Positions 11,294-40,748 of a stretch of DNA of 64,000 nt are shown piece by piece. Positions within the stretch are counted from its first letter, which is position 1. The number at the start of each line of letters is the position of its first letter. Where the stretch lies: positions 5,510-69,509 of the forward strand of contig JAZSIK010000024.1 of NCBI GenBank assembly GCA_045533775.1. Reading direction: 5' to 3'. The DNA comes from Eubacteriales bacterium (GTDB taxonomy: Bacteria; Bacillota; Clostridia; Oscillospirales; CAG-272). The notes below the pieces were generated by a model. The model was given only the letters and a program-made list of their open reading frames with translations. It was not told the DNA's origin and made no database searches. The position numbers and the translations under genes are program-made.

Positions 11294-11435
11294 TTAAAAA
11301 AACAAAAACAAACAAGTAATCTTTCTCCATTGATTACTAAATAAAGGCTGGGCGGCTGCCTCGGCAGTCGCCCTTGCCAAAAAAATATGGAGAGCGTTTC
11401 AGGCCTTAGTAATAAGGTAAATTAGAAAGGGGATT

Positions 11436-27190: not shown

Positions 27191-28737
27191 ATTTTACTTT
27201 GTTTGGGTGTATTATTTGTATAATGAAACAGTAAAAAAACACTTGATATTTGATAGTAAAAACTACCATTTTTAAGGCAAAAAACGTACCGTGATGTTTA
27301 TTTTATTATATTTTTCAAGGATTTTTGACCGTTTATGACATATTTTGATAAAAATGATATATTAGTAAATTATGCTTGTTAAGGGATAGACACTTCGTAT
27401 CAGAACAAACAATGAAAGTCGGTTGATGAATCTTTTTTAACAAAGCATCAGACGTTTGCTTAAAAAAACTTTTATCCTTTAATTAAAATAACAACTTAAT
27501 AATATAACAATAATAAAGTTTTCTTATATTATTTTTGTATTATTAATATAGAGAAGTTTATGACGGAGCTAATAAGTATAATTGAATAGACTCGCGGTGA
27601 GTAAATGCTTATACTAATAAATCTTGTACCTGATCTGGTTAAGTCTATCCTGAACTTGTTTTTTTCTCGGGGTGAAAAAAAGTCTTTCTTTTGTCATCGC
27701 CGATTCTTTATACAAGATAAAAGAATATTACTTCTTAATAGAATTAAAAAATGATAGTAGATTATACTCGTTTAATTTGTGCCATCTCATGTGTCATCTC
27801 ATTAATGAAAATTGATCATAATAGCAAGAGAATTATTCTAATAAAAAAACATTTTTATATCATCAAAGTGTTGCGCTTTTATGCACTAAAATATAGGGCA
27901 AATTATTGTAATTTTATATTGGAAAAATATAAGTTAGATATTCAGAAAAATCTGTATAAAAAACATCCGAAAATAATTTACTCTCTTAATTAGTAGTTTG
28001 TAAAAACAAGTAAAAAACTACATCAAAAAAGTTGTATTTATATATCAAAAAAACAGTCCTGTTTTCAAATCTTTCTGTCTGGAAATATTCCCTTACGAAG
28101 ATAATGAGAGCCTGACTGTGTTATTCCTTTTCGGCTTCTTTATTTGATTTGCCATCAATAAGGGTAAAAAAGAGGGGAAATAGCCAAAAACCTAAACAAT
28201 TGTTTACGATAAAAAGTTTTGAAAAGTTCATAATAATCTGCAAAAACTTTGAAATTAATAGAAAAATACTAAAAAAAACGAAAAAAGTTTGAAAAAATCC
28301 GAAAAGTTCGGTCAAAAATCAGAATCAAAGCTCTCTTTTTGAAAATGAACGGATTATTTATTCTTGTTTTTATCTCTTTTTGATCAAAATGTTCTTTTTT
28401 TGGTTTTTTTCTGTTTTTCACCCTTTAACGCTACCATTTTGAGCCCTAAAACACCTTGAATCATCTAAAAAATCAAGTCTTTTTGCCTGTATTTGTTCTG
28501 CAAATCACTCCATTATTTTTTGTTGCTAAGTATAATTATCTCGGTTGTAGTATCTGTTGCTACTTTGTTTTTAATCTTAATTTTTTTGATCTGTTTTTTC
28601 CTTCACTTTGGTGCATTTTCAGATGTTTTCCTCGGTGCTTTTTTCGTTATTCTACAGACTTTTTTTCCTTCTTTGTATGCTATTTTGGTATGCTTTTTTA
28701 TTCATTTTTTTGAGTTATTGTTTTCTTATCTTTCAAT
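27191..28737. other. 1.55-kb AT-rich region with no credible ORF, between convergent terminators
   Basis: Only four short low-complexity ORFs (60-123 aa, Phe/Leu/Ile/Lys-rich, no RBS). Composition contrasts sharply with the flanking genes. The plus strand is A-rich up to about 28330 and T-rich from 28330 to 28737. Confidence 0.6.
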
Positions 28738-28770
28738 AAAAAAATCGGGTGATTTTACACCCGATTTTTT
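28738..28770. terminator. Bidirectional terminator (serves glyA)
   Basis: AAAAAAATCGGGTG-loop-CACCCGATTTTTT, with A- and T-tracts on both sides. Confidence 0.85.
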
Positions 28771-28778
28771 ATGCTTTT

Positions 28779-30023
28779 TTACTCGTAAAGAGGGTACTTT
28801 CTGCAGAGGGCATTTACCCTTGCTTTTGCCTCCTCGGCATTTCCTTCAAAGTCGGAAAGTGTGAGAGAAATAATCCTTGCCACCTCTCTCATATCATCCT
28901 CGCCAAAGCCTCTGGTCGTTACAGCCGCCGTACCAAGACGAAGTCCGCTTGTAACGAAGGGCTTCTGTGTGTCAAAGGGAATGGCATTCTTGTTACAGGT
29001 AATTCCAACCTCGTCAAGCATATGCTCAGCCTCTTTACCTGTATCAACCTTCATTCCTGTAAGGTCAAGGAGCAGTAAATGGTTATCCGTTCCGCCCGAA
29101 ACCAGCTTAAAGCCCTCTTTTTCAAGCTCCGAGGCAAGCACGCTGCAGTTTTTTACTACATTTTTGGCATATTCCTTGAAGCTTGGCTTAAGTGCCTCAC
29201 CAAAGCATACCGCCTTTGCCGCGATAGTATGCATCAGAGGACCTCCCTGCGTGCCGGGGAATATGGATTTATCAATTTTCTTTGCAATTTCCTCGTCATT
29301 TGAGAGAATAAGACCGCCTCTCGGACCGCGCAGAGTTTTATGAGTGGTTGTTGTGGTTACGTGAGCGTAGGGAACAGGCGAGGGATGAGCTCCCGCGGCT
29401 ACAAGCCCCGCAATATGAGCCATATCAACCATCAGATATGCGCCAACCTCGTCTGCGATCTCGCGGAATCGCTTGAAATCAATGATTCTGGGGTATGCGG
29501 AGGCTCCTGCCAGGATCAACTTAGGCTTGGACTCAAGGGCAAGCCGTCTAACCTCGTCATAATCTATCACTCCGCCCTCGCGTGTTACACCGTAGGGCAC
29601 AATATTCCAGTATTTTCCCGAAATATTTACAGGCGAACCGTGGCTCAGATGTCCGCCGTGGGCAAGATTCATAGACAAAACGGTATCTCCCGTCTCAAGC
29701 AGAGCGAAAAATACAGCCATATTTGCCTGTGCGCCCGAGTGAGGCTGCACATTGGCATATCCTGCGCCAAAAAGCTCCTTGGCGCGCTCAATAGCTATGC
29801 TTTCAACCGTATCAACGTGCTCGCATCCACCGTAATATCTCCTGCCGGGATAGCCCTCAGCGTATTTGTTTGTCAGCGTTGTTCCGTTAGCCTCCATCAC
29901 AACCTCGGATACAAAGTTCTCGGAGGCAATCAGCTCTATTTTATTCCTCTGTCTGTTTGTTTCGCTTGTAATTGCTTCATAGAGACGAGGATCGTTTTCC
30001 TTAATAAGATTGTACTCTCTCAT
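28779..30023 (-). CDS. glyA: Serine hydroxymethyltransferase
   Basis: 414 aa; PLP-lysine motif [14 protein letters not shown]. Confidence 0.97.
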
Positions 30024-32047: not shown

Positions 32048-32599
32048 ATGTGGATATATCAGAAACAGCTTCAGCACCCGGTAAAGATTGAGAGACCCAA
32101 TCCTCGCCTTGCAAGTGTAATAATCACCGCACTTGGCGGCCCCGACGGAGAGACCGGCGCGGCAATGCGCTATCTTAACCAGCGCTACACTATGCCCGAC
32201 GGCAGAGTAGTCGGCATCCTGACCGACGTGGGTACCGAGGAAATGGGTCACCAGGAGATGGTAGCCAGCATTGTTTATCAGCTCACCCGCAACCTCACTC
32301 CCGACGAGATTATAGCAGGCGGCTTTGATAAATATTACGTTGACCACGGCGCAGGCATATTCCCCGCTTCCGCATCGGGAATGCCCTTTAACGCGGCATC
32401 TATCGCATCCAAGGAGGATGCCCTCGCCTCCATTCACGAGGACCTGGCGGCAGAGCAGAAGGCAAGAGCAATGTATGACAACATTCTCCGCCTCTCCGAT
32501 GACCCCGACGTCAACGACGTCATCCGTTTCCTCCGCCAGCGCGAGATCGTCCACTTCCAGCGCTTCGGCGAAGCTATGGAGATTTTGAAAAACAAGTAG
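32048..32599 (+). CDS. cotJC: Spore coat protein CotJC (manganese-catalase-like ferritin fold)
   Basis: GETGAAMRYLNQRY, EEMGHQEMV, LAAEQKARA, RFLRQREIVHFQRF di-metal motifs. Confidence 0.9.
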   Translation: MWIYQKQLQHPVKIERPNPRLASVIITALGGPDGETGAAMRYLNQRYTMPDGRVVGILTDVGTEEMGHQEMVASIVYQLTRNLTPDEIIAGGFDKYYVDHGAGIFPASASGMPFNAASIASKEDALASIHEDLAAEQKARAMYDNILRLSDDPDVNDVIRFLRQREIVHFQRFGEAMEILKNK

Positions 32600-32613
32600 T
32601 TTTTCAAAATCAA

Positions 32614-32690
32614 TGCCGCAGGCAATTCATGACGGCTCTGCCGTCAATTCATGCACTTCGTGCAATTCATGAGCCAACGGCTCAATTCAT
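32614..32690 (+). repeat. Four tandem units of a variable short hairpin plus conserved CAATTCAT
   Basis: TGCC-gca-GGCA, GACGG-ctctg-CCGTC, GCAC-ttc-GTGC and GAGCC-aac-GGCTC, each followed by (C)AATTCAT. CAATTCAT occurs at 32623, 32645, 32663 and 32683. Confidence 0.75.
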
Positions 32691-32700
32691 CATAAAAACA

Positions 32701-32755
32701 GGGCGGTTTGAGAAATCAAATCGCTCTTTACTTTTTTGTGTGGGTGTGGTATAAT
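32701..32755 (+). promoter_or_regulatory. Cassette junction module 1 (type-1 terminator hairpin plus promoter)
   Basis: GCGGTTTGA-gaaa-TCAAATCGC hairpin, then TTTACT (32727-32732), a 17-nt spacer containing GGGTGTGG, and TGgTATAAT (32747-32755). Confidence 0.7.
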
Positions 32756-32784
32756 ATAGTTACAAAAAGAATGGAGGATGGCTT

Positions 32785-33516
32785 ATGAATGCTGAAAATG
32801 AAATCAGAGAGTTTCTTTTAGGTAATACAGATATAGTTGCTTTCCGCGAAAAGTATGATAGCAATAATGAAATCAATGATTTTTTGCAGAACATTGTAGA
32901 TACTTGCATTTCATCCGATAGAGGATTTATTCCTACTCCTAGATTTTTTAGAAATGAAACAGTTTTCCACCATCATTATTTATACTGTTTTGCTCAACCA
33001 GACCTCTATCCCGGATTTGTATATGGTGATGATTCTTTTGTGTCCGTGCGGAACTTTCTCACGAAGGAATGGCGTATGCTCACGCATAATGTGAGAACTG
33101 CCAGTGGTGCGTGGGCATTCTATGATGGAGTATTTGATATTTTCTATCAGTATGATCAATCTATTGAATATCGTGGACAGAAATACGAACAAGCATATTG
33201 TTATGCATTGGATGTAATTCCGCAGTATTTAAGTGGTGGACAAGCAGAAATGTATATTCAGGAACATATTATTCCTCTTTTTCTTGATACAATGCCAAAA
33301 ACTCGTAGAATAAAAGAAACCAAGGCTCGTATTCGCCAAGAGTTTAAGAGCGAAAAGGGATATCCTTGCTGGGTACAATCTTCCGATTGGCCTTTAGGCA
33401 AAGACGGTAAGCCTATGACTTATGTTAAAAAAGGGAAACGCGATGGTGATAGGCACAGTTGGATATTCCGCGACGAAAACACAGGAGAACATACCATCGT
33501 AGAGCAATTTGAATGA
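32785..33516 (+). CDS. Hypothetical protein (cassette cargo A)
   Basis: 243 aa; GGAGG RBS at 32774-32778. AT-rich codon usage (GAA/AAA/TTA) unlike the neighbouring genes; no family recognised. Confidence 0.65.
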   Translation: MNAENEIREFLLGNTDIVAFREKYDSNNEINDFLQNIVDTCISSDRGFIPTPRFFRNETVFHHHYLYCFAQPDLYPGFVYGDDSFVSVRNFLTKEWRMLTHNVRTASGAWAFYDGVFDIFYQYDQSIEYRGQKYEQAYCYALDVIPQYLSGGQAEMYIQEHIIPLFLDTMPKTRRIKETKARIRQEFKSEKGYPCWVQSSDWPLGKDGKPMTYVKKGKRDGDRHSWIFRDENTGEHTIVEQFE

Positions 33517-33519
33517 TTG

Positions 33520-33584
33520 ATAAAACACTTCATGTTGACTGTATTGGCGAAGCTATGGAGATCTTGAAAGGCAAGAAATTCTAA
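33520..33584 (+). pseudogene. Relic of the 3-prime end of a cotJC-like gene
   Basis: 33546-33569 GGCGAAGCTATGGAGATCTTGAAA matches cotJC 32567-32590 with 1 mismatch. In frame it reads ...GEAMEILKGKKF-stop, against cotJC ...FGEAMEILKNK-stop. Confidence 0.55.
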
Positions 33585-33585
33585 A

Positions 33586-33650
33586 TAAGCCTTCCCCTTG
33601 GGGAAGGTGGCATACGCCCATTGCGAGTATGACGGATGAGGTAAAAAACA
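33586..33650 (+). repeat. Multi-hairpin intergenic repeat R1, copy a
   Basis: 65 nt with 3 mismatches to 35091-35155. Contains hairpins CCTTCCC...GGGAAGG and CATACGC...GCGAGTATG. With the following hairpin, the repeat extends to about 92 nt. Confidence 0.8.
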
Positions 33651-33707
33651 GGGCGGTTTGATTAGTCAAATCGTCCTATTTACTTTTTGAAATGGGTGTG
33701 GTATAAT
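33651..33707 (+). promoter_or_regulatory. Cassette junction module 2 (type-1 hairpin plus promoter)
   Basis: GGCGGTTTGA-ttag-TCAAATCGTC hairpin (10 bp, two of them G-U pairs), TTTACT (33679-33684), 17-nt spacer with GGGTGTGG, TATAAT (33702-33707). Confidence 0.7.
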
Positions 33708-33737
33708 GTAAAAAAAGTCCAAAAGGGAGCAATTAAT

Positions 33738-34319
33738 ATGAACACCATGCGTGAAAAGATAATTAACTCAACATTTGATTATTCACAACCTTGGTTTTAC
33801 AGAAATAAATTAGCTTTAAGATGCGAGCTGGGAATAGGCAAAGGCAAAAATTATATGGATAATGCCATAGATAGAGCAATGAAAATTGCTAATTTTTTAT
33901 TTGAAAATAAGAAAATAGATGCAGCGTTTTACGATGAATATTTTATTGATGGCAAAGCATGCGAGGTTGGCAATTTTGAAATAAAAATTGATGAAATAAT
34001 CAATCTTGACATGGACGTGTTACATAGTATAGATCTAATAGACGAAGATATTGAAATAGTAAAAAGATATATTTCATATGATATTGATTTCGCAGTCTTT
34101 GAAGGTATTATAAAGAATCAAATAGATAATCAGTATTCACCTTTGGTTAGTTTCGTTTCATTTGACAATCAATTTATATTTTCCGTTTATGATGACAGGG
34201 GATGTGATATTGTTTTCTTTTCCGAGGATAAGTACAAGGAGTTTTATGATAAATTAGAGCCGTATTTTTTGGATTACGATAGAACTACGATGAAAAATAC
34301 ATACAATTCTCTGAATTAG
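33738..34319 (+). CDS. Hypothetical protein, possibly DUF3885-like (cassette cargo B)
   Basis: ORF track 33687..34319 would include the promoter; ATG 33738 follows AAGGGAG. C-terminal SVYDDRGCDIVFFS...FLDYDR resembles DUF3885 (from memory, unverified). Very AT-rich. Confidence 0.65.
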   Translation: MNTMREKIINSTFDYSQPWFYRNKLALRCELGIGKGKNYMDNAIDRAMKIANFLFENKKIDAAFYDEYFIDGKACEVGNFEIKIDEIINLDMDVLHSIDLIDEDIEIVKRYISYDIDFAVFEGIIKNQIDNQYSPLVSFVSFDNQFIFSVYDDRGCDIVFFSEDKYKEFYDKLEPYFLDYDRTTMKNTYNSLN

Positions 34320-34346
34320 ACGCGAAAATACTTCATCCTGATAACA

Positions 34347-34402
34347 GGGCGGATCCAAAAACGAGCCGCCCTATTTACTTTTTTGCGTGGGTGTGGTATA
34401 AT
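34347..34402 (+). promoter_or_regulatory. Cassette junction module 3 (type-2 hairpin plus promoter)
   Basis: GGGCGGATC-caaaaac-GAGCCGCCC hairpin, TTTACT (34374-34379), 17-nt spacer with GGGTGTGG, TATAAT (34397-34402). Confidence 0.7.
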
Positions 34403-34436
34403 TAATATAATCTATCAGTTCAGGGGGATTCATTTT

Positions 34437-35090
34437 GTGAGTAAAGAGACATATGATTTTTTAAACAACCACTTTAATTCTTTTGAAAAGATTTATAATG
34501 AAAGTAAAGATTGCATTGAGATAGTAAAGCCACAGAATGAGTGTAAGATTATAGTTGACTACATTCCCGAAGATGATTTTAGTCCTTACTTAGTATCATG
34601 GTCATATCAACATAGACATTTAGTTGATGAGGACGATGTTATTGAATATGTAAATGAAATAATAAATTGTAAAGTTTATGCAATTGAATGTTTTAAAGGG
34701 GATACAGCTGTATTTGGAGGCGAAATCAGGATAGATGATTTTGAAGATTTCTCATACGAAACACTGGAAAAGTGGTCAGGAGATTTCGGTCTTACTAAAC
34801 TGTTAGATTGTGTTGATACAGTTAAGGTTAGATTTTGGAACGGTGGATTTGATGCAACAATCGCATACGATAAAGATGGAAAACCAACTGTTGTTTTACA
34901 ATGTGATGAATGTGGAAGTAAGTTTATTAAAGCTAAATCAAAAATGATGTCGCTTTGTCCCGAGTGTGCACATATTCTCTTTGGTTATGAAAATTGCAAT
35001 CATCAATTCAAGGACGGCAAATGCGAATTGTGTCATTGGGACGGAAGTAGAAGCGATTACATAAAAAAGTTGGTGGAAAACAATAAATAA
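34437..35090 (+). CDS. Hypothetical protein with C-terminal Cys/His zinc-ribbon (cassette cargo C)
   Basis: ORF track 34383..35090 would include the promoter; GTG 34437 follows AGGGGGA. C-terminus CDECGSKF...CPECAH...CNH...CELCH. Confidence 0.6.
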   Translation: MSKETYDFLNNHFNSFEKIYNESKDCIEIVKPQNECKIIVDYIPEDDFSPYLVSWSYQHRHLVDEDDVIEYVNEIINCKVYAIECFKGDTAVFGGEIRIDDFEDFSYETLEKWSGDFGLTKLLDCVDTVKVRFWNGGFDATIAYDKDGKPTVVLQCDECGSKFIKAKSKMMSLCPECAHILFGYENCNHQFKDGKCELCHWDGSRSDYIKKLVENNK

Positions 35091-35155
35091 TAAGCCTTCC
35101 CTTTGGGGAAGGTGGCATACGAGCATTGCGAGTATGACGGATGAGGTAAAAAACA
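35091..35155 (+). repeat. Multi-hairpin intergenic repeat R1, copy b
   Basis: Near-identical to 33586-33650 (3 mismatches in 65 nt); starts right at the stop codon of the preceding gene. Confidence 0.8.
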
Positions 35156-35210
35156 GGGCGGTTTGATTAGTCAAATCGTCCTTTACTTTCCCACTTTTTT
35201 GTGCTACAAT
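35156..35210 (+). promoter_or_regulatory. Cassette junction module 4 (type-1 hairpin plus promoter variant)
   Basis: Same hairpin as 33651-33676, then TTTACT (35182-35187), 17-nt spacer, TGcTACAAT (35202-35210). Confidence 0.65.
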
Positions 35211-35305
35211 AGAATTGCTACCCGAAATCCGACAGTTTTTATAGAAAAAAGTCGGGAAAAAGTCTTTTGTTTATGCTACGATAGATGCAAACAGAGGTGA
35301 TAATA

Positions 35306-36160
35306 ATGAATGTTTTAGAGAGTATGAATGCTACAATTGAATACATTGAGGAGCATCTTCTGGACGAGCTTCATATATCTGACATTGCTGCAGCAAAAGG
35401 CAATCTTGAGAGCGATATTCAAAGGACCTTTTACGCTCTCACAGGCATATCCATTGTAGAATATATGCGTAGGCGAAGGCTTTCCCTTGCCGGTTATGAG
35501 CTTCAAAAGGGTGGTCAAACCGTGCTTGATGTGGCATTAAAGTATGGCTACAACTCGCCCGACTCATTTGCTCGCGCATTCAGACAGATGCACGGCATTA
35601 CGCCATCAGCGGTGAAACGCGGCGGCGCTCTTTTGAAATCCTATGGAAAAATCACCTTTGTATTAACAATCAAAGGAGTAAATGCAATGAATTACAGAAT
35701 TGTAAAAAAGGACGAAATGCACATCATAGGCTTCAAAAAATGGTTCTCAACCGAAAACGACAGTCAGATGACCGAGATACCAAAGATGTGGGACTCCGTT
35801 ACAGATGAGATGAGAGAGCAGATCACATCTCTTAGTAACAACGATGGCGTTGTGGGATTATGCGCGGATATGTATAACGGCGGATTTGATTATTGGATTG
35901 GCTGTATGTCCGATAAAGTCTGCCCCGACAATCTTGAAGAAATCACGATCCCCGCATCCGACTGGGCGGTATTTGAGATCATAGGGTCAATGCGTCCTCT
36001 CCCAAATCCTATGCAGGATATCTGGAAGCGTATTTACTCCGAGTGGCTGCCCAATTCGGGCTATAAGCACGCAATGATCCCGGAGATTGAATATTATTCC
36101 GCAGGAGATATGCTGGCAGATAATTACAGAAGCGAGATCTGGATTCCTATAAAGAAATAA
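35306..36160 (+). CDS. AraC family transcriptional regulator with GyrI-like effector-binding domain
   Basis: ORF track 35285..36160; ATG 35306 follows AGAGGTGA. HTH region YNSPDSFARAFRQMHGITPS, then a GyrI-like (SOUL/Rob-type) C-terminal half. Confidence 0.88.
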   Translation: MNVLESMNATIEYIEEHLLDELHISDIAAAKGNLESDIQRTFYALTGISIVEYMRRRRLSLAGYELQKGGQTVLDVALKYGYNSPDSFARAFRQMHGITPSAVKRGGALLKSYGKITFVLTIKGVNAMNYRIVKKDEMHIIGFKKWFSTENDSQMTEIPKMWDSVTDEMREQITSLSNNDGVVGLCADMYNGGFDYWIGCMSDKVCPDNLEEITIPASDWAVFEIIGSMRPLPNPMQDIWKRIYSEWLPNSGYKHAMIPEIEYYSAGDMLADNYRSEIWIPIKK

Positions 36161-36167
36161 ACAACAA

Positions 36168-36190
36168 GGCGGCTCCAAAAACGAGCCGCC
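36168..36190 (+). repeat. Type-2 hairpin, second copy (no T-tract, no promoter module)
   Basis: GGCGGCTC-caaaaac-GAGCCGCC. 36163-36193 matches 34343-34373 apart from 3 substitutions (one of them the GGATC vs GGCTC difference within the hairpin arm). Confidence 0.7.
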
Positions 36191-36251
36191 CTATGGAGCT
36201 ATCCGGTTGCAAATGGGCGGCGCACGATGGCCAGCAGCCCGATTGAGAATA

Positions 36252-36282
36252 GGACCGCGAGAAATTCGCGGTCTTATTTTTT
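36252..36282 (+). terminator. Rho-independent terminator
   Basis: GACCGCGA-gaaat-TCGCGGTC hairpin followed by TTATTTTTT. Confidence 0.8.
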
Positions 36283-36302
36283 AATAAAAAGCGCTTTTGG
36301 TG

Positions 36303-36331
36303 TTGAAAAAAAGCTTGCTTTATAGTATAAT
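36303..36331 (+). promoter_or_regulatory. Promoter of nfnAB-like operon
   Basis: TTGAAA (36303-36308), 17-nt spacer, TATAAT (36326-36331). Confidence 0.6.
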
Positions 36332-36410
36332 ATAAAAGATATTATTTTTTCACACAAGGTTGATTGACAAAGACATATGTTTTGTAAATCAATCGGTAGA
36401 AAGAGGCAAA

Positions 36411-37271
36411 ATGTACAGAATAGTTAATAATAAAATACTTAATCCAACCGTCGTAATGATGGATATTGAGGCGCCCCTCGTTGCAAAGAAAGCAGAGGCT
36501 GGTCAGTTCATTATTCTCCGCGTAGACGAGGCGGGCGAGCGTATTCCCCTCACCGTTGCGGGCTATGACAGAGAGGCTGGAACCGTAAAAATCATTTTCC
36601 AGATCGTTGGCTCCACCACAAAGAAGCTCGGCCAAAAGCGGGAGGGCGAATATATACAGGATTTTGCAGGCCCCCTCGGTCTGCCCACACACCTTGACGG
36701 ACTTGGTGATGTATGTATCGTAGGCGGCGGCGTTGGTTGTGCCATTGCGCTCCCCGTTGCCCAGGCACTGAAGGCGAGAGGCGCTAAGGTGACCTCCATT
36801 ATCGGATTCAGAAGCTCGGATCTCGTTATCCTTGAGGATGAATTCGCGGCTTGCTCGGATGAGCTTGTTGTTATGACTGACGACGGCAGCTACGGTAGAC
36901 AGGGAAATGTAACCCTGCCTCTCAAGGAGATGCTCGCCGAGCGTAAGTTTGATAAGGTTATTACCATAGGACCTTTGATTATGATGAAGTTTGTTGTTGA
37001 GACTGTTCGCCCCACAGGCATCCCCTGTGATGTATCTATGAATCCTATTATGATAGACGGCACGGGTATGTGTGGTGGCTGCCGACTCACTCTCAATGTA
37101 GACGGCAAGCGCGTTACCAAGTTTGCCTGTGTTGACGGTCCTGACTTTGACGGATATCAGGTTGATTTTGATGAGGCTATGATGCGCGGCGGTGCGTATC
37201 GCGGCTTTGAGCGCCACGCATATGAGGAGACCTGCAATCTCTTTAAGAAGGGAGAGGACAACAATGGCTAA
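36411..37271 (+). CDS. nfnA: Sulfide/dihydroorotate dehydrogenase-like FAD/NAD-binding protein (NfnA-like, ferredoxin:NADP oxidoreductase small subunit)
   Basis: ORF track 36360..37271; ATG 36411 follows AAGAGG. Ferredoxin-reductase-type fold (RIPLTVAGYD) and C-terminal 2Fe-2S cysteines (MCGGCRLT...FACVDGP). Confidence 0.82.
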   Translation: MYRIVNNKILNPTVVMMDIEAPLVAKKAEAGQFIILRVDEAGERIPLTVAGYDREAGTVKIIFQIVGSTTKKLGQKREGEYIQDFAGPLGLPTHLDGLGDVCIVGGGVGCAIALPVAQALKARGAKVTSIIGFRSSDLVILEDEFAACSDELVVMTDDGSYGRQGNVTLPLKEMLAERKFDKVITIGPLIMMKFVVETVRPTGIPCDVSMNPIMIDGTGMCGGCRLTLNVDGKRVTKFACVDGPDFDGYQVDFDEAMMRGGAYRGFERHAYEETCNLFKKGEDNNG

Positions 37272-38679
37272 GGCAAATATGTCACTTAAGAAAAACGAGA
37301 TGCCCACGCAGGACGCTCTCGTTCGCGCACACAATTTCTCCGAGGTTGCTCTCGGATACGATGAGGCAACCGCAATAGATGAGGCACTCCGCTGCCTGAA
37401 CTGTAAGAATATGCCCTGTGTTAACGGCTGCCCCGTTAACATTCACATTCCCGAGTTTATCTCCAAGATCAAGGAGGGCGACTTTGAGGCAGCCTATCAG
37501 GTGATTGCAAAAAGCTCCACTCTCCCCGCAGTATGCGGCAGAGTTTGTCCCCAGGAGACCCAGTGCGAAAAGCTCTGTGTAAGAGGCATCAAGGGTGAGC
37601 CCGTCGGCATTGGCAGACTTGAGAGATTCGTTGCCGATTGGCACAACGCACATAGTGATGCGACCCCCGAGTGCCTTGCTCCAAATGGACATAAGGTTGC
37701 TGTAGTTGGCTCGGGTCCCTCCGGACTTACCTGCGCCGGCGATCTGGCAAAGGCAGGCTATTCCGTAACCGTATACGAGGCTCTTCATACCGCGGGCGGT
37801 GTGCTTGTTTACGGTATCCCCGAGTTCCGTCTGCCTAAGGCGATAGTTCAGAAGGAGGTTGACAATCTGAAGGCTATGGGCGTTCAGCTTGTGACCAATG
37901 TTATCATAGGCAAAACACTTACAGTAGACGAGCTGTTTGATATGGGCTATGAGGCAGTATTCATCGGCTCGGGCGCTGGTCTTCCCAACTTTATGGGTAT
38001 TCCCGGCGAGGAGCTGAAGGGCGTCTACTCGGCAAACGAGTACCTCACCCGCTCCAATCTTATGAAGGCATATCTTGACAACCCCGAGACCCCTATTATG
38101 AAGGGCGGCAAGGTTGCCGTTGTGGGCGGCGGAAATGTGGCTATGGACGCCGCGCGTACCGCACTCCGCCTCGGCGCAGAGAAGGTATATATCGTTTACC
38201 GCCGTTCTATGACCGAGCTCCCCGCAAGGCGTGAGGAGGTTGAACACGCAGAGGAGGAGGGCATTGAGTTCCGTCTGCTCTGTAACCCCACCGAGATCAT
38301 AGGCTATAACAACCCCGACAACCCTCGCGATGAGCGGAACGGCAGCGTTCAGGCTATCAGGTGTATCCGTATGGAGCTTGGTGAGCCCGACGAGCGCGGC
38401 AGACGCCGTCCTGTTGAGGTTCCCGGTAGCGAGTTTACCCTTGATGTTGATGCTGTGGTAATGTCAATAGGCACCTCTCCCAATCCACTTATCAAGTCCA
38501 CCACCGATGGACTTGAGGTCAACCGCTGGGGCGGTATTATCGTCACCGAGGACGGAGCCACCACCAAGGCAGGCGTATACGCAGGCGGAGATGCCGTAAC
38601 AGGCGCCGCAACCGTAATCTCCGCTATGGGTGCCGGCAAGGTAGCCGCAAAGGCGATTGATGAGTATCTTACGAAGTAA
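37264..38679 (+). CDS. nfnB: NADPH-dependent glutamate synthase homotetrameric-type / NfnB-like subunit
   Basis: ORF track 37192..38679; ATG 37264 follows GGAGAGG and overlaps the nfnA stop. Fe-S clusters CLNCKNMPCVNGCP and CGRVCPQETQCEKLC; two Rossmann motifs VVGSGPSG and VVGGGNVAMD. Confidence 0.9.
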   Translation: MAKANMSLKKNEMPTQDALVRAHNFSEVALGYDEATAIDEALRCLNCKNMPCVNGCPVNIHIPEFISKIKEGDFEAAYQVIAKSSTLPAVCGRVCPQETQCEKLCVRGIKGEPVGIGRLERFVADWHNAHSDATPECLAPNGHKVAVVGSGPSGLTCAGDLAKAGYSVTVYEALHTAGGVLVYGIPEFRLPKAIVQKEVDNLKAMGVQLVTNVIIGKTLTVDELFDMGYEAVFIGSGAGLPNFMGIPGEELKGVYSANEYLTRSNLMKAYLDNPETPIMKGGKVAVVGGGNVAMDAARTALRLGAEKVYIVYRRSMTELPARREEVEHAEEEGIEFRLLCNPTEIIGYNNPDNPRDERNGSVQAIRCIRMELGEPDERGRRRPVEVPGSEFTLDVDAVVMSIGTSPNPLIKSTTDGLEVNRWGGIIVTEDGATTKAGVYAGGDAVTGAATVISAMGAGKVAAKAIDEYLTK

Positions 38680-38715
38680 TGCGCCACAGAGCAATTACTA
38701 AAGTTTATAGAATAG

Positions 38716-38780
38716 ATATGACGGTTTGGTTAGTAAAATCAAACCGTCATATTTACATTCGGGGGATTTTGTGATATAAT
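38716..38780 (+). promoter_or_regulatory. Terminator plus promoter module related to the type-1 cassette junction
   Basis: 13-bp perfect hairpin ATATGACGGTTTG / CAAACCGTCATAT whose core CGGTTTGgTTAGTaAAATC resembles the type-1 CGGTTTGaTTAGTcAAATC. Then TTTACA (38752-38757), 17-nt spacer, TGaTATAAT (38772-38780). Confidence 0.65.
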
Positions 38781-38839
38781 AAAGCCGATTAGAAACTAAC
38801 CTATGAGCTTGAAATTGACATAATTTTAGGGAGGGAAAT

Positions 38840-39343
38840 ATGAATATCACAGTTAGACTAACAAAAGAAAACGAAGCACCGGAGTTATGCGAGATACAAA
38901 AAGCGGCGTTCCTCCCCTTATACGAGAAATATCATGACGAAGGGAATCCTTGCCTGAGGGGTGTGGAAGATATCACCAATAGATTAAACTCGGATTTCTT
39001 TCTTAATTTTACTATTTTGGTAGACGGAGAAATTGCGGGTGGCATTCTTTACAGGCGCAAAGGTGGTACACCGTTTTTAGAGTGTTTGGCAGAGGGGCAA
39101 TACTATTTACAAAGAGTCTATATTAAACCTCACATGCAGTGCAGAGGCATTGCACAGACAGCTATTCTCCTTTGTGAGAAAGAACTCCCGGGTGCAAAGC
39201 AAATCTTTGTGGATTTTCCGGAAGATTTGATAAAAAACAGACGATGTTATGAAAAAGTGGGATTTGTTGATACAGGAGATAGATCGTCAGCACATCCGAG
39301 CTTAGTTTTAGCGTCTTATGAAAAAATCTTACATTTTGAATGA
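38840..39343 (+). CDS. GNAT family N-acetyltransferase
   Basis: 167 aa; acetyl-CoA-binding region RVYIKPHMQCRGIAQTAI; AT-rich codon usage; GGGAGGG RBS. Confidence 0.85.
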   Translation: MNITVRLTKENEAPELCEIQKAAFLPLYEKYHDEGNPCLRGVEDITNRLNSDFFLNFTILVDGEIAGGILYRRKGGTPFLECLAEGQYYLQRVYIKPHMQCRGIAQTAILLCEKELPGAKQIFVDFPEDLIKNRRCYEKVGFVDTGDRSSAHPSLVLASYEKILHFE

Positions 39344-39384
39344 CATATTCCAATTTGTTGAGCATAATAATACAGTAAACAGAT

Positions 39385-39415
39385 AGCCACGGCTTCACAC
39401 GAGCCGTGGCTTTTC
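39385..39415 (+). terminator. Rho-independent terminator
   Basis: AGCCACGGCT-tcacacg-AGCCGTGGCT perfect 10-bp stem followed by TTTT. Confidence 0.8.
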
Positions 39416-39465
39416 CGCATCTGCACCTCTAAAAAACTGATTGACAAAGGATTTCATTTTTCTCC

Positions 39466-39494
39466 TTGACACCGGTAATAATAAGTGATAAAAT
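39466..39494 (+). promoter_or_regulatory. Promoter of sdaA
   Basis: TTGACA (39466-39471), 17-nt spacer, TGaTAAAAT (39486-39494). Confidence 0.55.
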
Positions 39495-39536
39495 ATACTT
39501 GTAAAAATATGCAATAATTCTTTTAGGAGAAAACAT

Positions 39537-40748
39537 ATGAAATCCATAAGAGATATATACAAGATAGGCAAGGGCCCTTCCTCATCTCATACCATGGGAC
39601 CTGCAAAGGCTATGAGCATTTATGTTTCCGAGCATCCCGAGGCTGAGAGCTATAAGGTCGTTCTGTTCGGCAGCCTTGCTGACACAGGTGAGGGACACGG
39701 AACCGACAAGGCGCTTTCCTCTGCAACCGACAAGGCGGTTGAGATCATCTTCAATACCACCGACCGCGACCTTCCTCACGAGAACACTATGGATATTTAT
39801 TCGGTGGTTGATGGGGTAGAGCAGAATAAGATGCGCGTTATGAGCATCGGTGGCGGCGATATCAGGATAGAGGGCAGAGCAGAGCTTGATGCTGCGGATG
39901 ATGTTTATCCTCAGTCCAGCTTTACTGCCATTGCTGAATACTGTAAGGCAAATCAGCTTCGCCTGTCAGAGTATGTTTTTCTGAGAGAGGGAGAGAAAAT
40001 ACGCGAGTTTCTTCTTGAGGTCTGGGGCGTTATGAAAAACGCTATTCACGCGGGACTGACTACCTCGGGTATTCTCCCCGGCGGTCTTGAGGTGGAGAGA
40101 AAGGCGCAGTATCTCTACAACCAGCGTCATATTGACGAGAGCCCCGTTACCCGGGAGAACCGTATAGTTTGCTCCTATGCTTATGCGGTCAGCGAGCAGA
40201 ACGCAGACAACGGTACTATTGTTACTGCGCCTACCTGCGGTGCATGTGCCGTTCTTCCCTCGGTGCTTAAATATATGCAGGAGAAGCACAGCTTCTCCGA
40301 TGAGGATATTCTTCGCGCTCTTGCCGTCGCAGGTCTTATCGGTGCTCTTACCAAGACCAACGCGTCTGTCAGCGGAGCGGAGTGTGGATGTCAGGCGGAG
40401 GTTGGTACAGCCTGTTCAATGGCTTCTGCTGCTCTCGGTGAGCTCTTTGAGATGGGTATTGACCAGATAGAATACGCGGCGGAGATCGCCTTTGAGCATC
40501 ATCTCGGACTTACCTGTGATCCAATTTGCGGTCTTGTGCAGATCCCCTGTATTGAGCGTAATGCGGTTGCTGCTATGCGAGCTATAAATGCAGTAAACCT
40601 GGCAAACTTCCTTTCCGGCTCCAGAAAGATCTCGCTTGATATGGTTATCAAGACTATGTATGAGACGGGCAAGGACCTTTCTCACCACTACCGCGAGACC
40701 TCTACGGGAGGCCTTGCAAAGCTCTACGGAGGCAAAAAGAATGGATAA
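39537..40748 (+). CDS. sdaA: L-serine ammonia-lyase, iron-sulfur-dependent (single-chain form)
   Basis: N-terminal IGKGPSSSHTMGP motif; the C-terminal half has conserved Cys (CGACA, ECGCQAEVG, GLTCDP). Confidence 0.87.
   Translation: MKSIRDIYKIGKGPSSSHTMGPAKAMSIYVSEHPEAESYKVVLFGSLADTGEGHGTDKALSSATDKAVEIIFNTTDRDLPHENTMDIYSVVDGVEQNKMRVMSIGGGDIRIEGRAELDAADDVYPQSSFTAIAEYCKANQLRLSEYVFLREGEKIREFLLEVWGVMKNAIHAGLTTSGILPGGLEVERKAQYLYNQRHIDESPVTRENRIVCSYAYAVSEQNADNGTIVTAPTCGACAVLPSVLKYMQEKHSFSDEDILRALAVAGLIGALTKTNASVSGAECGCQAEVGTACSMASAALGELFEMGIDQIEYAAEIAFEHHLGLTCDPICGLVQIPCIERNAVAAMRAINAVNLANFLSGSRKISLDMVIKTMYETGKDLSHHYRETSTGGLAKLYGGKKNG

Follow-up and report, generated by a model that had tools for sequence, protein, structure and literature searches.

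The interval between cotJC and nfnA in the window (the whole 64-kb stretch of DNA that was analysed) is probably a composite island that grew through successive site-specific integrations at the cotJC 3' end, with mini-cassettes moved by a large serine recombinase (LSR). We draw this reading from the copies of a cotJC-derived repeat, called P-left, from the linkage of P-left to an LSR and from a set of attachment (att) sites corresponding to integration. An earlier note on this DNA had described the interval as an array of cassettes separated by hairpin-plus-promoter junctions; since the repeat at which recombination would occur is P-left, that interpretation is only partly supported. All features are collected in Table 1.

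Table 1. Features of the cotJC-nfnA interval (window positions) and the LSR gene of locus L065 (L065 positions)
Feature	Position	Strand	Description and basis
cotJC	32048..32599	+	Anchor gene, Mn-catalase family spore-coat gene; Pfam Mn_catalase 3.4e-51
attB-like site	32546-32599	+	Last ~18 cotJC codons; attB/attL/attR alignment, native tails in 13 genomes
Spacer block	32613..32699	+	CAATTCATG four times; sequence read directly
Junction 1	32700..32755	+	Terminator-like hairpin 32700-32727, then sigma-A-type promoter
Cargo gene 1	32785..33516	+	243 aa; Clostridia-wide family without Pfam model
Intact att remnant	33524..33584	+	P-left ACTTCATGTTGACTGTATT, core GGCGAAGCTATGG, displaced cotJC tail EILKGKKF*; only intact one in the window
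GGAAGG-hairpin repeat, copy 1	33584..33650	+	Small REP-like repeat between tail and hairpin; self-repeat comparison
Junction 2	33650..33707	+	Hairpin 33650-33677, promoter 33679-33707
Cargo gene 2	33738..34319	+	193 aa, DUF3885 family; Pfam PF13021 7.5e-17
Truncated P-left	34328..34336	+	ATACTTCAT, just 3' of the gene 2 stop; rest of the site deleted
Junction 3	34346..34402	+	Type-2 hairpin 34346-34372, promoter 34374-34402
Cargo gene 3	34437..35090	+	217 aa, GTG start, C-terminal zinc ribbon; weak Zn-ribbon matches
GGAAGG-hairpin repeat, copy 2	35089..35155	+	Self-repeat comparison
Junction 4	35155..35210	+	Hairpin 35155-35182, weaker promoter TTTACT..TGCTACAAT 35182-35210
Cargo gene 4	35306..36160	+	AraC-type HTH and GyrI-like/Cass2 effector-binding domain; Pfam, NCBIfam
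Type-2 hairpin	36163..36194	+	Closes the array, terminator-like; 94% identical to junction-3 hairpin
nfnA promoter and nfnA	36303..37271	+	Promoter 36303-36331, nfnA 36411-37271; conserved right border of the hotspot
LSR gene (L065)	10001-11515		Upstream: 140-aa resolvase-domain and 60-aa proteins

P-left (aTACTTCATGTTGACTGTATTGGCGAAGCnATGg) was found in about 50 related loci as a block of ~33 nt lying 1-24 nt past nearly every cargo open reading frame (ORF), and it copies the cotJC codons VVHFQRF-GEAM in frame, with divergence. Measured from the ORF end, 43 of 48 copies lie 1-54 nt downstream, 42 of these 43 within 24 nt, and the sequences flanking the ~33-nt block are not conserved. In an alignment of 35 copies, every cargo-side copy begins ILHVDCI-GEAM, where native cotJC reads (V/I)VHFQRF-GEAM. 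Past the core, discrete tail types follow: EILK[GDN]K(KF)*, RSLTE*, RILQDGK* and NILRDKKF*. The array tail types equal native CotJC C-termini of other genomes, whose variable tail is 4-9 residues long. The diagnostic repeat of the arrays is this 33-nt copy of the cotJC 3' end, which directly adjoins each cargo stop codon.

In the window, the attB-like site of cotJC is composed, in order, of B-left (GTCCACTTCCAGCGCTTC), the core (GGCGAAGCTATGG, 32567-32579) and the tail EILKNK*. The 3' end of cotJC (32567-32601) is duplicated after gene 1, at 33546-33580, a duplication that had been missed before. The intact att remnant is the only exact match within the 64 kb, against 0 expected; it and the cotJC core delimit cassette 1, a unit of 979 bp (repeat spacing 979). 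The truncated P-left behind gene 2, also overlooked before, was identified from its sequence, against the full remnants of the aligned copies. The spacer block, with a different short palindrome between each of its CAATTCATG copies, is part of the sequence normally found 3' of the EILKNK* tail; it is 100% identical to L031 668-754 and also occurs downstream of the L065 attR. Likewise overlooked was a 94-nt repeat pair (33584-33677 and 35089-35182, 97% identical), and the junctions exceed the size first given to them. Copies of the GGAAGG-hairpin repeat are also present in unrelated intergenic DNA of L055.

As the earlier note had stated for recombinases, neither the recombinase nor any other protein of the element was matched in the 64-kb window (tblastn, E<=1). 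The note had left the assembly of the array unexplained; relatives encode an LSR of 504 aa, linked to the repeat, at the head of the array, between cotJC and the cassettes. In 11/11 LSR loci (L028, L059, L062-L070), P-left follows the end of the LSR gene within 2-6 nt. One LSR is only 69% identical, yet its P-left is 25/29 identical, and P-left is better conserved than the LSR coding sequence. The best named-family matches of the LSR are XisF and CcrB/CcrC/CcrA. Its assignment as a Ccr orthologue was rejected, with 119 bits against a cut-off of 900.

The attB of the window reads GTCCACTTCCAGCGCTTC / GGCGAAGCTAT / GGAGATTTTGAAAAACAAGTAG followed by the CAATTCATG block, the attL of L065 ends in CCAGAGATTT / GGCGAAGCAAT / ACAATCAGGGTGA, and the attR of L065 reads TACTTCATGTTGACTGTATT / GGCGAAGCTAT / GGAAATTTTGAAAAACAAGTAG, followed by the CAATTCATG block as in the window. 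Set side by side, these sites make up a textbook integration set. Their alignment shows that elements of ~7 kb and larger, with the 504-aa LSR at the right end, integrate at the cotJC codons ...FGEAM, the crossover falling inside GGCGAAGCnAT. Two cassettes that are identical elsewhere differ in the 5 nt lying between GACTGTA and CGAAGC, which leaves some latitude as to its exact position. Integration leaves, as attL, cotJC with a replacement tail and, as attR, P-left, the core and the displaced old cotJC tail. cotJC stays intact, only its last 4-9 codons being replaced. The LSR element directly adjoins cotJC where cotJC is in view (L065), and wherever an LSR locus contains cassettes, these come after the element. 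This order is as expected, because the P-right of the LSR element (IQSG*) rebuilds no attB.

The four junctions described previously were recovered: the motif TTTACT-N14-TGnTAYAAT, with a 17-nt spacer between hexamers, matches exactly at 32727, 33679, 34374 and 35182, all within 2.5 kb, and nowhere else in 64 kb (0.04 expected). In junction 1 the -35 lies at 32727-32732 and the extended -10, TGGTATAAT, at 32747-32755. GGGTGTGGTATAAT is indeed confined to the first three junctions, and the two hairpin types also stood, type 1 at 32697, 33647 and 35152 and type 2 at 34348 and 36168. Each hairpin has a perfect GC-rich stem of 12 bp, a loop of 4-7 nt and a T-run behind it; folding energies are -14 to -19 kcal/mol, with z-scores of -3 to -5, and a T-rich run overlapping the -35 hexamer follows the first four. 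They seem to behave as ordinary intrinsic terminators and not as a recombination element; the promoter motif is also found outside arrays. The hairpin and promoter module of the junctions also lies inside the LSR element (L065 6652-6715), a regulatory style common to both.

Searching species-representative genomes with the exact promoter motif gave 35 matches. The motif was rare, with 1-3 exact copies per genome; as a marker of arrays it failed at 16 of the 35 loci, which show no other array feature. These 16 loci are what one would expect if the modules were nothing more than the terminator and promoter consensus of the region, belonging to ordinary neighbouring genes. We give that reading practically no credit: it is already contradicted by the low copy number per genome and by the concentration of four copies in one short stretch of the window, and it would leave the cotJC-tail duplications, the swapped cargo and the linked recombinase unexplained. 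The same holds for an integron or a CALIN (attC cluster lacking integrase), in which the hairpins would be attC sites and a tyrosine integrase would be encoded elsewhere. Single-ORF cassettes in a one-directional array, cargo mostly without assigned function and one cargo protein with a Cass2 'integron-associated effector binding' domain would all agree with it. However, neither a tyrosine integrase nor attC was found: the hairpins lack both RYYYAAC/GTTRRRY cores and extrahelical bases, hairpin types swap in front of the same cargo, every cassette brings a promoter of its own, the element conserved between cassettes is a linear cotJC-derived sequence and the linked recombinase is a serine enzyme. 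The features tested already contradict this reading, which we hold to be scarcely credible.

The AT-richness and switched codon preference reported for the cargo were confirmed: genes 1-3 have a GC content of 0.29-0.38 vs 0.51-0.55 for cotJC and nfnAB, and GAA/GAG counts of 15/3, 8/5 and 14/5 vs 2/10, 2/16 and 2/38 in flanking genes. Gene 4 has an intermediate GC of 0.44 and an 88% identical copy inside the L010 array (tblastn). Gene 1 has 118 homologues, 0 of them with a Pfam domain, and a confidently predicted fold (AF2 pLDDT 93) for which no relative was found in PDB or BFVD; similarly, no relative of gene 2 was found in PDB. Gene 3 is 98.7% identical over 719 nt to L066 10171-10889. After its stop codon L066 carries P-left and the window the GGAAGG repeat, and in the window gene 3 has lost its P-left and tail. 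Across the arrays, the cargo pool consists of very diverse small proteins, mostly without a family, among them several predicted membrane proteins or lipoproteins, and includes LRR, DUF4240, DUF3885, SF0329 and an RHS-repeat lipoprotein.

Small, diverse and AT-rich cargo with such families would also suit an orphan immunity-gene array of a polymorphic-toxin system, where toxin-tip/immunity modules are displaced and the cargo genes encode immunity proteins; the topology is comparable, a main gene having its 3' end swapped and its old ends displaced downstream. We consider this very improbable, as the anchor is a spore-coat gene of the Mn-catalase family with a variable tail of just 4-9 residues and no toxin domain, and as displacement is explained by the LSR with matching att sites. 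No toxin gene was found in the window or in any array examined, and the cargo matched no Pfam immunity-named family and no PADLOC defence model, so that nothing identifies the interval as such an array.

The interval is a hypervariable hotspot: cotJABC and/or nfnAB are common to the window and to L005/L006, L010, L032, L035, L059, L062 and L066, which carry differing sets of 2-6 cassettes, and synteny at the nfnA border is kept in L005, L035, L059, L062 and L069. Relatives with ~92% identical NfnA have entirely different cargo in the cotJC-nfnA interval. The same cassettes recur in other arrays in altered order and as solitary copies elsewhere, in agreement with the idea of swappable single-gene cassettes of foreign composition. 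For instance, L059 and L066 share a 78-aa cassette with 100% identity up to the end of TTGACTGTA, and its neighbours differ on either side. The cassettes of gene 1 and gene 3 also exist singly at unrelated loci, where they carry a cotJC-tail remnant; the gene 3 copy in L050 is 95% identical, and ~800 nt are inserted in L050 compared with L055. The left end of the L050 cassette bears 9 nt resembling B-left, which does not fit simple circle insertion. Similarly, a pure core-crossover model predicts that the left ends of shared segments should fall in the upstream tail, whereas those of high-identity segments vary between the hairpin edge, the -35 and the -10. Homologous recombination therefore clearly also acts on the arrays, and might alone suffice for the shuffling.

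Taken further, P-left copies would be inert leftovers of past LSR integrations, no recombinase would act on mini-cassettes, and RecA-dependent recombination between repeated tail, terminator and promoter modules would gain, lose and reorder cassettes, incoming DNA pairing, for example, with the cotJC body through its left arm and with a tail remnant through its right. The left breakpoints varying within the conserved hairpin/promoter module, the mosaic modules with inserted REP-like and 8-9-mer blocks and the lack of an LSR in many arrays, window included, argue for this, and an ordinary double crossover with staggered arms could presumably insert a repeat-flanked unit. Yet we judge it unlikely. 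It leaves unexplained why dozens of unrelated ORFs end 1-24 nt before one 33-nt site, why this site is conserved above its flanks and above the LSR coding sequence, why right-hand breakpoints cluster at P-left/core and how solitary cassettes arrived at non-homologous loci; it also implies an implausible repeated, precise loss of the ~6-kb element interior up to P-left.

Under serial integration by the LSR, the single-gene cassettes of ~0.5-1 kb would be non-autonomous relatives or riders of LSR elements. A cassette circle would carry P-left, the core, a cotJC-like replacement tail, the terminator hairpin, a sigma-A promoter, a 5'UTR and one ORF, and would be integrated by the LSR in trans. As the tail supplied by the cassette is similar to that of cotJC, integration would rebuild a functional attB on cotJC, where the next cassette would enter, pushing older cassettes and displaced tails toward nfnA. 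That a regenerated attB is used again and again is an assumption; we know of no classical LSR that recombines hybrid sites without a directionality factor. The hairpin would stop read-through from cotJC or the preceding cassette, the promoter would express its own cargo independently, and homologous recombination between repeated terminator/promoter modules would further shuffle and mosaicise the arrays. The window lacks the recombinase element and retains an intact attB on cotJC and an intact P-left behind gene 1. With only this one intact P-left, only cassette 1 (979 bp) looks excisable, and it should still be so; the cassettes of genes 2 and 3, whose sites have been truncated or deleted, are fixed.

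The closest analogue is the SCC/psiSCC composite island and not an integron. SCC integrates at rlmH (bioRxiv 10.64898/2026.03.31.715619), and a composite island of psiSCC, a ccrC element and SCCmec has been described (bioRxiv 10.1101/336396). Staphylococcal and enterococcal SCC, including psiSCC and composite islands, lie at the rlmH 3' end and are moved by the large serine recombinases CcrAB/CcrC. In both systems integration occurs in the last codons of a conserved chromosomal gene whose reading frame is restored, direct repeats copied from the target 3' end flank every unit, units stand in tandem, and some carry the LSR while others do not. The target here is cotJC instead of rlmH, the units are ~0.5-1 kb, non-autonomous and single-ORF with built-in terminator and promoter, unlike the multi-kb SCC islands, arrays reach 5-6 units, and the hosts are uncultured gut Clostridia. 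Integrons, with the IntI tyrosine recombinase, attI and attC-bearing promoterless cassettes, are similar at the level of function: a fixed chromosomal docking site gathers single-ORF cassettes in one orientation from a huge pool, mostly without assigned function, and content differs between close strains. They differ in that the recombinase is here a serine enzyme, carried on a mobile element and often absent, the site is a conserved ~33-nt duplex from the target gene and not a folded attC, and cassettes bring their own promoter and terminator.

cotJC has already been noted as an LSR-element target, with gerE, yaaH and yhbH also listed (bioRxiv 10.1101/2021.11.22.469490). The present elements resemble the LSR prophage-like elements of sporulation genes, skin in sigK and SPbeta in spsM, in that a mother-cell sporulation gene is the site-specific target of an LSR element; no mini-cassette arrays were described for these in the literature searched. 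Elements of the skin/SPbeta type split their target, and excision is needed to reconstitute the gene, whereas here cotJC remains whole. Tandem accretion islands with recombinase-less riders include CIMEs beside ICEs in streptococci and tycheposon islands at tRNA genes in Prochlorococcus. There too, repeated integration at one gene 3' end yields cargo arrays between partial target copies, and integrase-less units rely on the integrase of a neighbour; unlike here, the enzymes are tyrosine recombinases and the units kb-scale, and we know of none in a standard terminator-promoter-ORF mini-cassette format. If our reading is true, the cotJC arrays would be an integron-like gene-collecting system built on another enzyme, a serine recombinase.

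Each of the four cargo genes on the plus strand between cotJC and nfnA (genes 1 to 4) is preceded by a junction, that is, a terminator-like hairpin followed by a promoter. As the earlier note had described, the promoter pattern TTTACT-N14-TGnTAYAAT (a -35 box and an extended -10 box) is exact at all four junctions, 4 occurrences in 64 kb against 0.04 expected. The sequence GGGTGTGGTATAAT is confined, within the same 64 kb, to the first three junctions, and the hairpins fall into the two types proposed. On folding, they reached -14 to -19 kcal/mol, far under shuffled controls. Using a consensus scan, a T-rich run overlapping the -35 hexamer was found behind the first four stems, and these four hairpins were scored as terminator-like for this reason. 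According to the consensus scans and folding, the module matches a predicted intrinsic terminator plus sigma-A promoter, with a GC-rich stem-loop, a U-tract, a 17-nt spacer and a TG extension. The sole match in an Rfam scan of positions 32400-36500 was IS128, below threshold (28.6 bits versus 80).

Between cotJC-type tails (the residues after the core GEAM codons) and hairpins, a fixed 8-9-mer (CAATTCATG, AACTTCAC or GATGAAATC) is found in 3 to 4 copies parted by differing palindromes of 9 to 17 nt. The window block is 100% identical to that of L031, a related locus in which it precedes a different cargo; such blocks could serve as binding arrays for proteins or as accessory sites in recombination. 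Before some promoters, a ~120-nt insert ending ...GGGAAACAGTTATCAACTGTTTCCCTCTGTTCAC stands in place of the hairpin 3' half as a further mosaic piece. A ~60-nt element (the CCTTCCCnTTGGGGAAGG hairpin, then GGCA..ACGGATGAGG) is present in some junctions and, in several copies and both orientations, at unrelated intergenic sites of related genomes; it appears to be a separate REP/MITE-like repeat that belongs to the clade and colonised the junctions.

The related loci L005 and L006 (NfnA 92% identical) share the flanks of the window, SHMT, DUF4416, cotJA, cotJB and cotJC on one side and nfnA and nfnB on the other, and hold four wholly different genes (179, 260, 116 and 166 aa, the second with DUF2310), each preceded by a hairpin-promoter junction of this kind. 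Cargo is thus swapped at this site, as had been suspected, and gene order is not invariant. Among 72 promoter-led ORFs, 46 were singletons and 12 recurring families were counted; the latter appear in differing arrays, with a changed order in at least one case (178/230/141 aa in L007, 141/230 aa in L011). The cleanest pattern was observed in L035 (JAZONX01), where the native cotJC is accompanied by five cassettes, each followed by a 58-nt repeat, 'ctaaataaaac' and a hairpin. An exact look-up of the window CotJC found none on record.

The 22-base promoter motif was scanned over 185,579 species-representative genomes and detected at 35 loci in ~32 MAGs, all from Clostridia, Eubacteriales or Oscillospiraceae; most were recovered from faecal samples, among them those of ruminants, pigs and rabbits. 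With 1 to 3 copies per locus, it is not the consensus promoter of whole genomes. A link to cotJC, nfnA or the tail repeat was nevertheless seen at no more than 19 of the 35 loci; the remaining 16 showed no further sign of an array, and the promoter is therefore not the hallmark. At these 16 loci the exact motif, TTTACTTT-N7-GGGTGTGGTATAAT, precedes genes or operons, and these bacteria may favour its -10 region, GGGTGTGGTATAAT, as a form of strong promoter.

We then considered the repeat derived from the cotJC 3' end, of which 35 copies were aligned. All copies following cargo genes open with aaaTACTTCATGTTGACTGTATTGGCGAAGCnATG directly behind the cargo stop. This left part, P-left, is a diverged in-frame copy of cotJC codons and reads ILHVDCI-GEAM, where the native counterpart, B-left, reads (V/I)VHFQRF-GEAM. 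Beyond the common GGCGAAGCnATG, the copies carry discrete tail types, each ending at a stop codon (EILK[GDN]K(KF), RSLTE, RILQDGK and NILRDKKF), which are the native CotJC C-termini of various genomes. The cotJC reading frame is kept open by such replacement tails in 13 genomes, with a variable tail of 4 to 9 aa. Among 56 distinct copies of P-left, conservation is confined to a block of ~33 nt (aTACTTCAtgTTGACTGTatTGGCGAAGCnATGg) and does not extend into the flanks. P-left lies 1 to 54 nt past an ORF end in 43 of 48 non-redundant copies, at 24 nt or less in 42 of the 43.

A recombinase was found beside this repeat in L059 (NfnA 92% identical), where, upstream of nfnA, a gene for a resolvase-domain protein of 142 aa and a 60-aa ORF are succeeded by the gene for a large serine recombinase (LSR) of 503 aa and then by five cassettes. 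The LSR (503-504 aa) combines Resolvase, Recombinase and Zn_ribbon_recom domains, and in L059 its stop directly abuts P-left, core and tail (MLYVDCFGEAMNILREKKF, then stop). Homologues were identified in L065-L068 (84% identity), L062-L064 (78%), L069/L070 (69%) and L028 (a GTDB MAG). P-left starts 2 to 6 nt from the LSR stop in 11 of 11 LSR loci; between L065 and L069 it is identical at 25 of 29 positions, the adjoining LSR coding sequence being visibly more diverged. L065 holds the whole element, in the order 379-, 142-, 192- and 311-aa genes after cotJC, 140-aa resolvase-domain protein, 60-aa ORF, 504-aa LSR, P-left and cassettes. Its attL and attR match the attB of the window (see the table), and at the sequence level this textbook set shows an LSR element integrating at the 3' end of cotJC, with a crossover inside GGCGAAGCnAT; this integration is rated very probable. 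None of the LSR-element proteins is encoded in the window, which agrees with the earlier remark that no recombinase is present there. Scanning metagenomes with P-left retrieved 8 short contigs only, and scans of viral contigs with P-left and the LSR protein gave no matches, so that a phage carrier is without evidence.

The resolvase-domain protein (140-142 aa, catalytic domain only) and the 60-aa ORF are always found ahead of the LSR gene and might act as a directionality factor or as another subunit of the recombinase. The hairpin-promoter style also occurs within the LSR element, which suggests a common ancestry of element and cassettes. In L069 and L070, a 69%-identical LSR element is inserted at the same position, with AraC and nfnAB downstream of it; its cargo is restriction-modification-like (N6_N4 methyltransferase, DUF1016/YhcG nuclease, ResIII helicase with a RE_endonuc domain) and mini-cassettes are absent behind it. 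In L062, a second mobile element with a tyrosine integrase, HTH regulators, a MobA/MobL relaxase and TnpV is nested in the LSR element. Two other serine recombinases, one next to a gene 1 homologue in the L004 prophage and one upstream of the L039 array, are 20-25% identical to the array LSR and for this reason were not counted as evidence.

Coordinates and sequences of the features in the window and in related loci (slashes separate the parts of att sites)
Feature	Locus	Position	Remarks
Genes 1, 2, 3 and 4	window	32785-33516, 33738-34319, 34437-35090, 35306-36160	plus strand
attB in cotJC	window	32546-32599	intact; GTCCACTTCCAGCGCTTC/GGCGAAGCTAT/GGAGATTTTGAAAAACAAGTAG + CAATTCATG block
Repeat of cotJC last ~35 nt	window	32567-32601, 33546-33580	86% identity, 979-nt spacing; second copy after gene 1
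Cassette 1	window	32580-33558 (approximately)	979 bp; between cotJC core and the only intact P-left of the window (33527-33553)
Four CAATTCATG copies	window	32613-32699	different small palindrome between each; between cotJC and junction 1
Promoter pattern	window	32727, 33679, 34374, 35182
Type 1 hairpin	window	32697, 33647, 35152
Type 2 hairpin	window	34348, 36168
94-nt repeat	window	33584-33677, 35089-35182	97% identical; includes CCTTCCCnTTGGGGAAGG hairpin element
CCTTCCCnTTGGGGAAGG element	window	33584-33650, 35089-35155
	L055	4670-4990
	L059	2760-2810
	L021	790-815
Remnant after gene 2	window	34328-34336	ATACTTCAT alone left
AT-rich stretches	window	28000-28800, 38600-39600	GC 0.26-0.41 amid ~50% GC
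167-aa ORF	window	38840-39343	behind promoter-like TTTACA..TGATATAAT (38752-38780), in one AT-rich stretch
8-9-mer blocks	L035 (minus)	~4020-3940, ~2150-2060
	L065	11582-11660
	L031	668-754
~120-nt insert	L035 (minus)	4720-4600, 3280-3160
	L066	~10140-10170
LSR gene	L065	10001-11515
Resolvase-domain protein + 60-aa ORF	L065	9374-9978	9374-9796, 9796-9978
	L059	555-1165
	L062	9368-9978
Hairpin-promoter style in LSR element	L065	6652-6715
69%-identical LSR element	L069	1-10545
	L070	1-11515
Nested mobile element	L062	1555-7557
Gene 1 homologue in prophage-like region	L004	5834-8732
attP, LSR element			TACTTCATGTTGACTGTATTGGCGAAGCAATACAATCAGGG...
attL	L065		...CCAGAGATTT/GGCGAAGCAAT/ACAATCAGGGTGA; cotJC end there GEAIQSG, then stop
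attR	L065		TACTTCATGTTGACTGTATT/GGCGAAGCTAT/GGAAATTTTGAAAAACAAGTAG + same CAATTCATG block as window attB
Native CotJC ends (then stop)	window		EILKNK
	L005		RILQDGK
	L035		EHLKGKKF
	L018		LRSLTE
	L019		NILRDKKF
Motif without nearby tail repeat, hairpin, cotJC or nfnA	L008, L012-L017, L020, L023-L026, L034, L036-L038

Behind its ORF, every cassette has the P-left that is also found behind the LSR gene; a cotJC-like tail, terminator hairpin and promoter stand ahead of the ORF. A cassette circle would hold P-left, core, tail, hairpin, promoter and ORF, and its recombination with attB would yield the order cotJC(B-left)-core-new tail-hairpin-promoter-ORF-P-left-core-old tail. The order observed is exactly the one that the circle model predicts. 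Because the cassette tail resembles that of cotJC, the cotJC-side product would again look like attB and would permit serial insertion. The right arm of the LSR element (IQSG, then stop) is unlike the cotJC tail, which fits the element adjoining cotJC in L065 and lying ahead of the cassettes in other loci. As the best explanation, the array was probably built by serial insertion at the 3' end of cotJC, mediated by the LSR and with non-autonomous mini-cassettes; that the LSR mobilises these cassettes in trans is slightly more likely than not. In the window itself, the recombination site is cut behind gene 2 and gone after gene 3, and only one P-left is intact. The window array accordingly reads as a stack that has partly fossilised, in which one unit is potentially mobile and no recombinase is resident.

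Cassettes recur as units in differing surroundings. A 78-aa cassette is 100% identical between L059 and L066 from the hairpin through '...TTGACTGTA', with differing neighbours on either side. The gene 3 cassettes of the window and L066 are 98.7% identical over 719 nt; after the gene 3 stop, L066 has P-left and the window a GGAAGG repeat, ~59 nt (P-left plus tail) having apparently been lost from the latter. Solitary copies of gene 3 (95% identical, L050, oxidase/IleRS) and gene 1 (82%, L001 and L053, MgtC/SulP; one solitary gene 1 copy lies within the same 90% cluster) were found at unrelated loci. They retain their hairpin and promoter and, upstream, a remnant of the cotJC tail, together with a partial P-left on the right side for gene 3 (L050) and none for gene 1. 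By empty-site comparison, the ~800-nt insertion carrying the solitary gene 3 cassette in L050 is missing from its relative L055, although the two genomes (90% aa) have diverged too far for the junction to be clean. Its left end contains 9 nt of a cotJC-type left arm that simple circle insertion does not predict. The left ends of the high-identity tracts also differ (hairpin edge, -35 or -10), so that homologous recombination between the repeated modules shapes the arrays as well. The crossover breakpoints fall inside a ~12-15-nt stretch, GACTGTA/TTGGCGAAGCnAT/, and do not agree well enough with one another to give a single position; as 5 nt between GACTGTA and CGAAGC differ in otherwise identical cassettes, the crossover is not placeable to one nucleotide.

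The composition of genes 1 to 3 fits their proposed foreign origin, with a GC content of 0.29-0.38 and a preference for GAA/AAA/TTA, against 0.51-0.55 and GAG/AAG/CTC for cotJC and nfnAB. Gene 1 (243 aa) belongs to no Pfam family and has 118 homologues in Clostridia and Oscillospiraceae MAGs; its AlphaFold model is confident (pLDDT 93) and has no fold match in PDB or BFVD. Gene 2 is a DUF3885 protein and gene 3 shows a weak C-terminal zinc-ribbon signal only, PDB sequence searches with both giving no useful match. Gene 4, an AraC-type regulator with a GyrI-like/Cass2 domain, has intermediate GC, an 88% identical copy inside the L010 array and only a type 2 hairpin on its 3' side in the window. 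NCBIfam recognised its AraC family and nothing else among the cargo, and PADLOC defence models matched none of the four window proteins. Of ~35 cargo proteins scanned in the window and its relatives, the majority have no family and the matches (DUF3885, DUF2310, DUF4240, SF0329, LRR, RHS-repeat, AraC/GyrI) include none immunity-named in Pfam. For the ~30 from outside the window, Pfam gave SF0329 (twice), DUF4240, LRR, an RHS-repeat lipoprotein and zinc ribbons, the rest mostly having no family; by eye, several cargo proteins look like membrane proteins or lipoproteins. A gene 1 homologue (77%) ends a prophage-like region of L004, behind an unrelated 547-aa serine recombinase and a NUDIX gene and with no junction module; the gene family thus rides other mobile elements too. 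The two further AT-rich stretches of the window are candidates for additional small islets of acquired DNA.

Among known systems, the SCC/psiSCC composite island at rlmH comes closest. SCC integrates at rlmH (bioRxiv 10.64898/2026.03.31.715619), and a composite island with psiSCC, a ccrC element and SCCmec has been described (bioRxiv 10.1101/336396). Both systems enter at the 3' end of a conserved gene whose ORF is restored, both show direct repeats of the target end around tandem recombinase-less units (here the cotJC-end pair), and in both the LSR is encoded by autonomous members beside the att site, none lying in the window itself. Here, however, the target is cotJC, the LSR belongs to another lineage and, above all, the cassettes are miniature, standardised, single-gene and self-expressed from predicted promoters. 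In NCBIfam, the LSR is a generic superfamily member whose best named matches (XisF, CcrB/C/A) are all far under cut-offs. With 119 bits for CcrB (cut-off 900), 90 for CcrC and 80 for CcrA, it is not a Ccr orthologue, and SCC proper was rejected; Clostridium phage integrases are ~33% identical to it.

The cassette array of the earlier note is upheld, whereas its analogies with integrons and orphan immunity-gene arrays are not. The likeness to integrons is one of function, and none of their defining features tested was found; the integron reading was rejected on hairpin anatomy and recombinase type. The stems are perfect, GC-rich and followed by a T-run, in contrast to the imperfect attC hairpins with R''/L''-L'/R' cores; the stem GTTTGAG does not fit GTTRRRY, and hairpin types interchange ahead of identical cargo. 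The array-linked enzyme is a serine recombinase and not of IntI type, no tyrosine recombinase adjoins the arrays examined (the sole one belongs to the separate nested element of L062), and a promoter-like site with an extended -10 box stands ahead of every cassette, unlike in arrays of promoterless cassettes behind a common Pc promoter. As for an orphan immunity array, the anchor is CotJC, a Mn catalase, in which only the 4-9-aa tail varies, and no toxin gene with a variable C-terminal domain is its neighbour in the window or the arrays examined. Since cotJC is already listed as a phage/transposon integration target (bioRxiv 10.1101/2021.11.22.469490), the LSR element alone fits a known kind and the novelty lies in the mini-cassette array, of which literature searches on DUF3885, cotJC cassettes and serine-recombinase integron-like arrays yielded no account.

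Read conservatively, these data record cotJC as a well-defined hotspot of LSR integration whose attB, attL and attR sequences are clean. More tentatively, and with doubt slightly prevailing, they might describe a 'serine integron', in which an LSR would capture, stack and release ~1-kb mini-cassettes at the 3' end of cotJC, each bringing the tail that regenerates the docking site. The format of such a cassette, on the same hesitant footing, might be an att half-site, a replacement gene tail, a terminator, a promoter and one ORF. To our knowledge, integrons are essentially unknown in Gram-positive anaerobes. If the mini-cassettes are true recombinase substrates, they would be a second answer to the integron problem in such bacteria, evolved independently of the tyrosine-recombinase integrons, with two traits that the latter lack: a terminator and promoter in each cassette, and a docking site rebuilt by a spare end of the host gene. 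The system would offer a tractable case of how single ORFs are packaged into mobile cassettes, a question shared with integrons, and would yield a compact LSR/att pair, possibly with reusable sites, for genome engineering. It would also mean that gut Clostridia share a big pool of self-expressed genes of mostly unknown function, and would open access to the uncharacterised small genes traded horizontally among the Clostridia of ruminant, pig and other animal guts.
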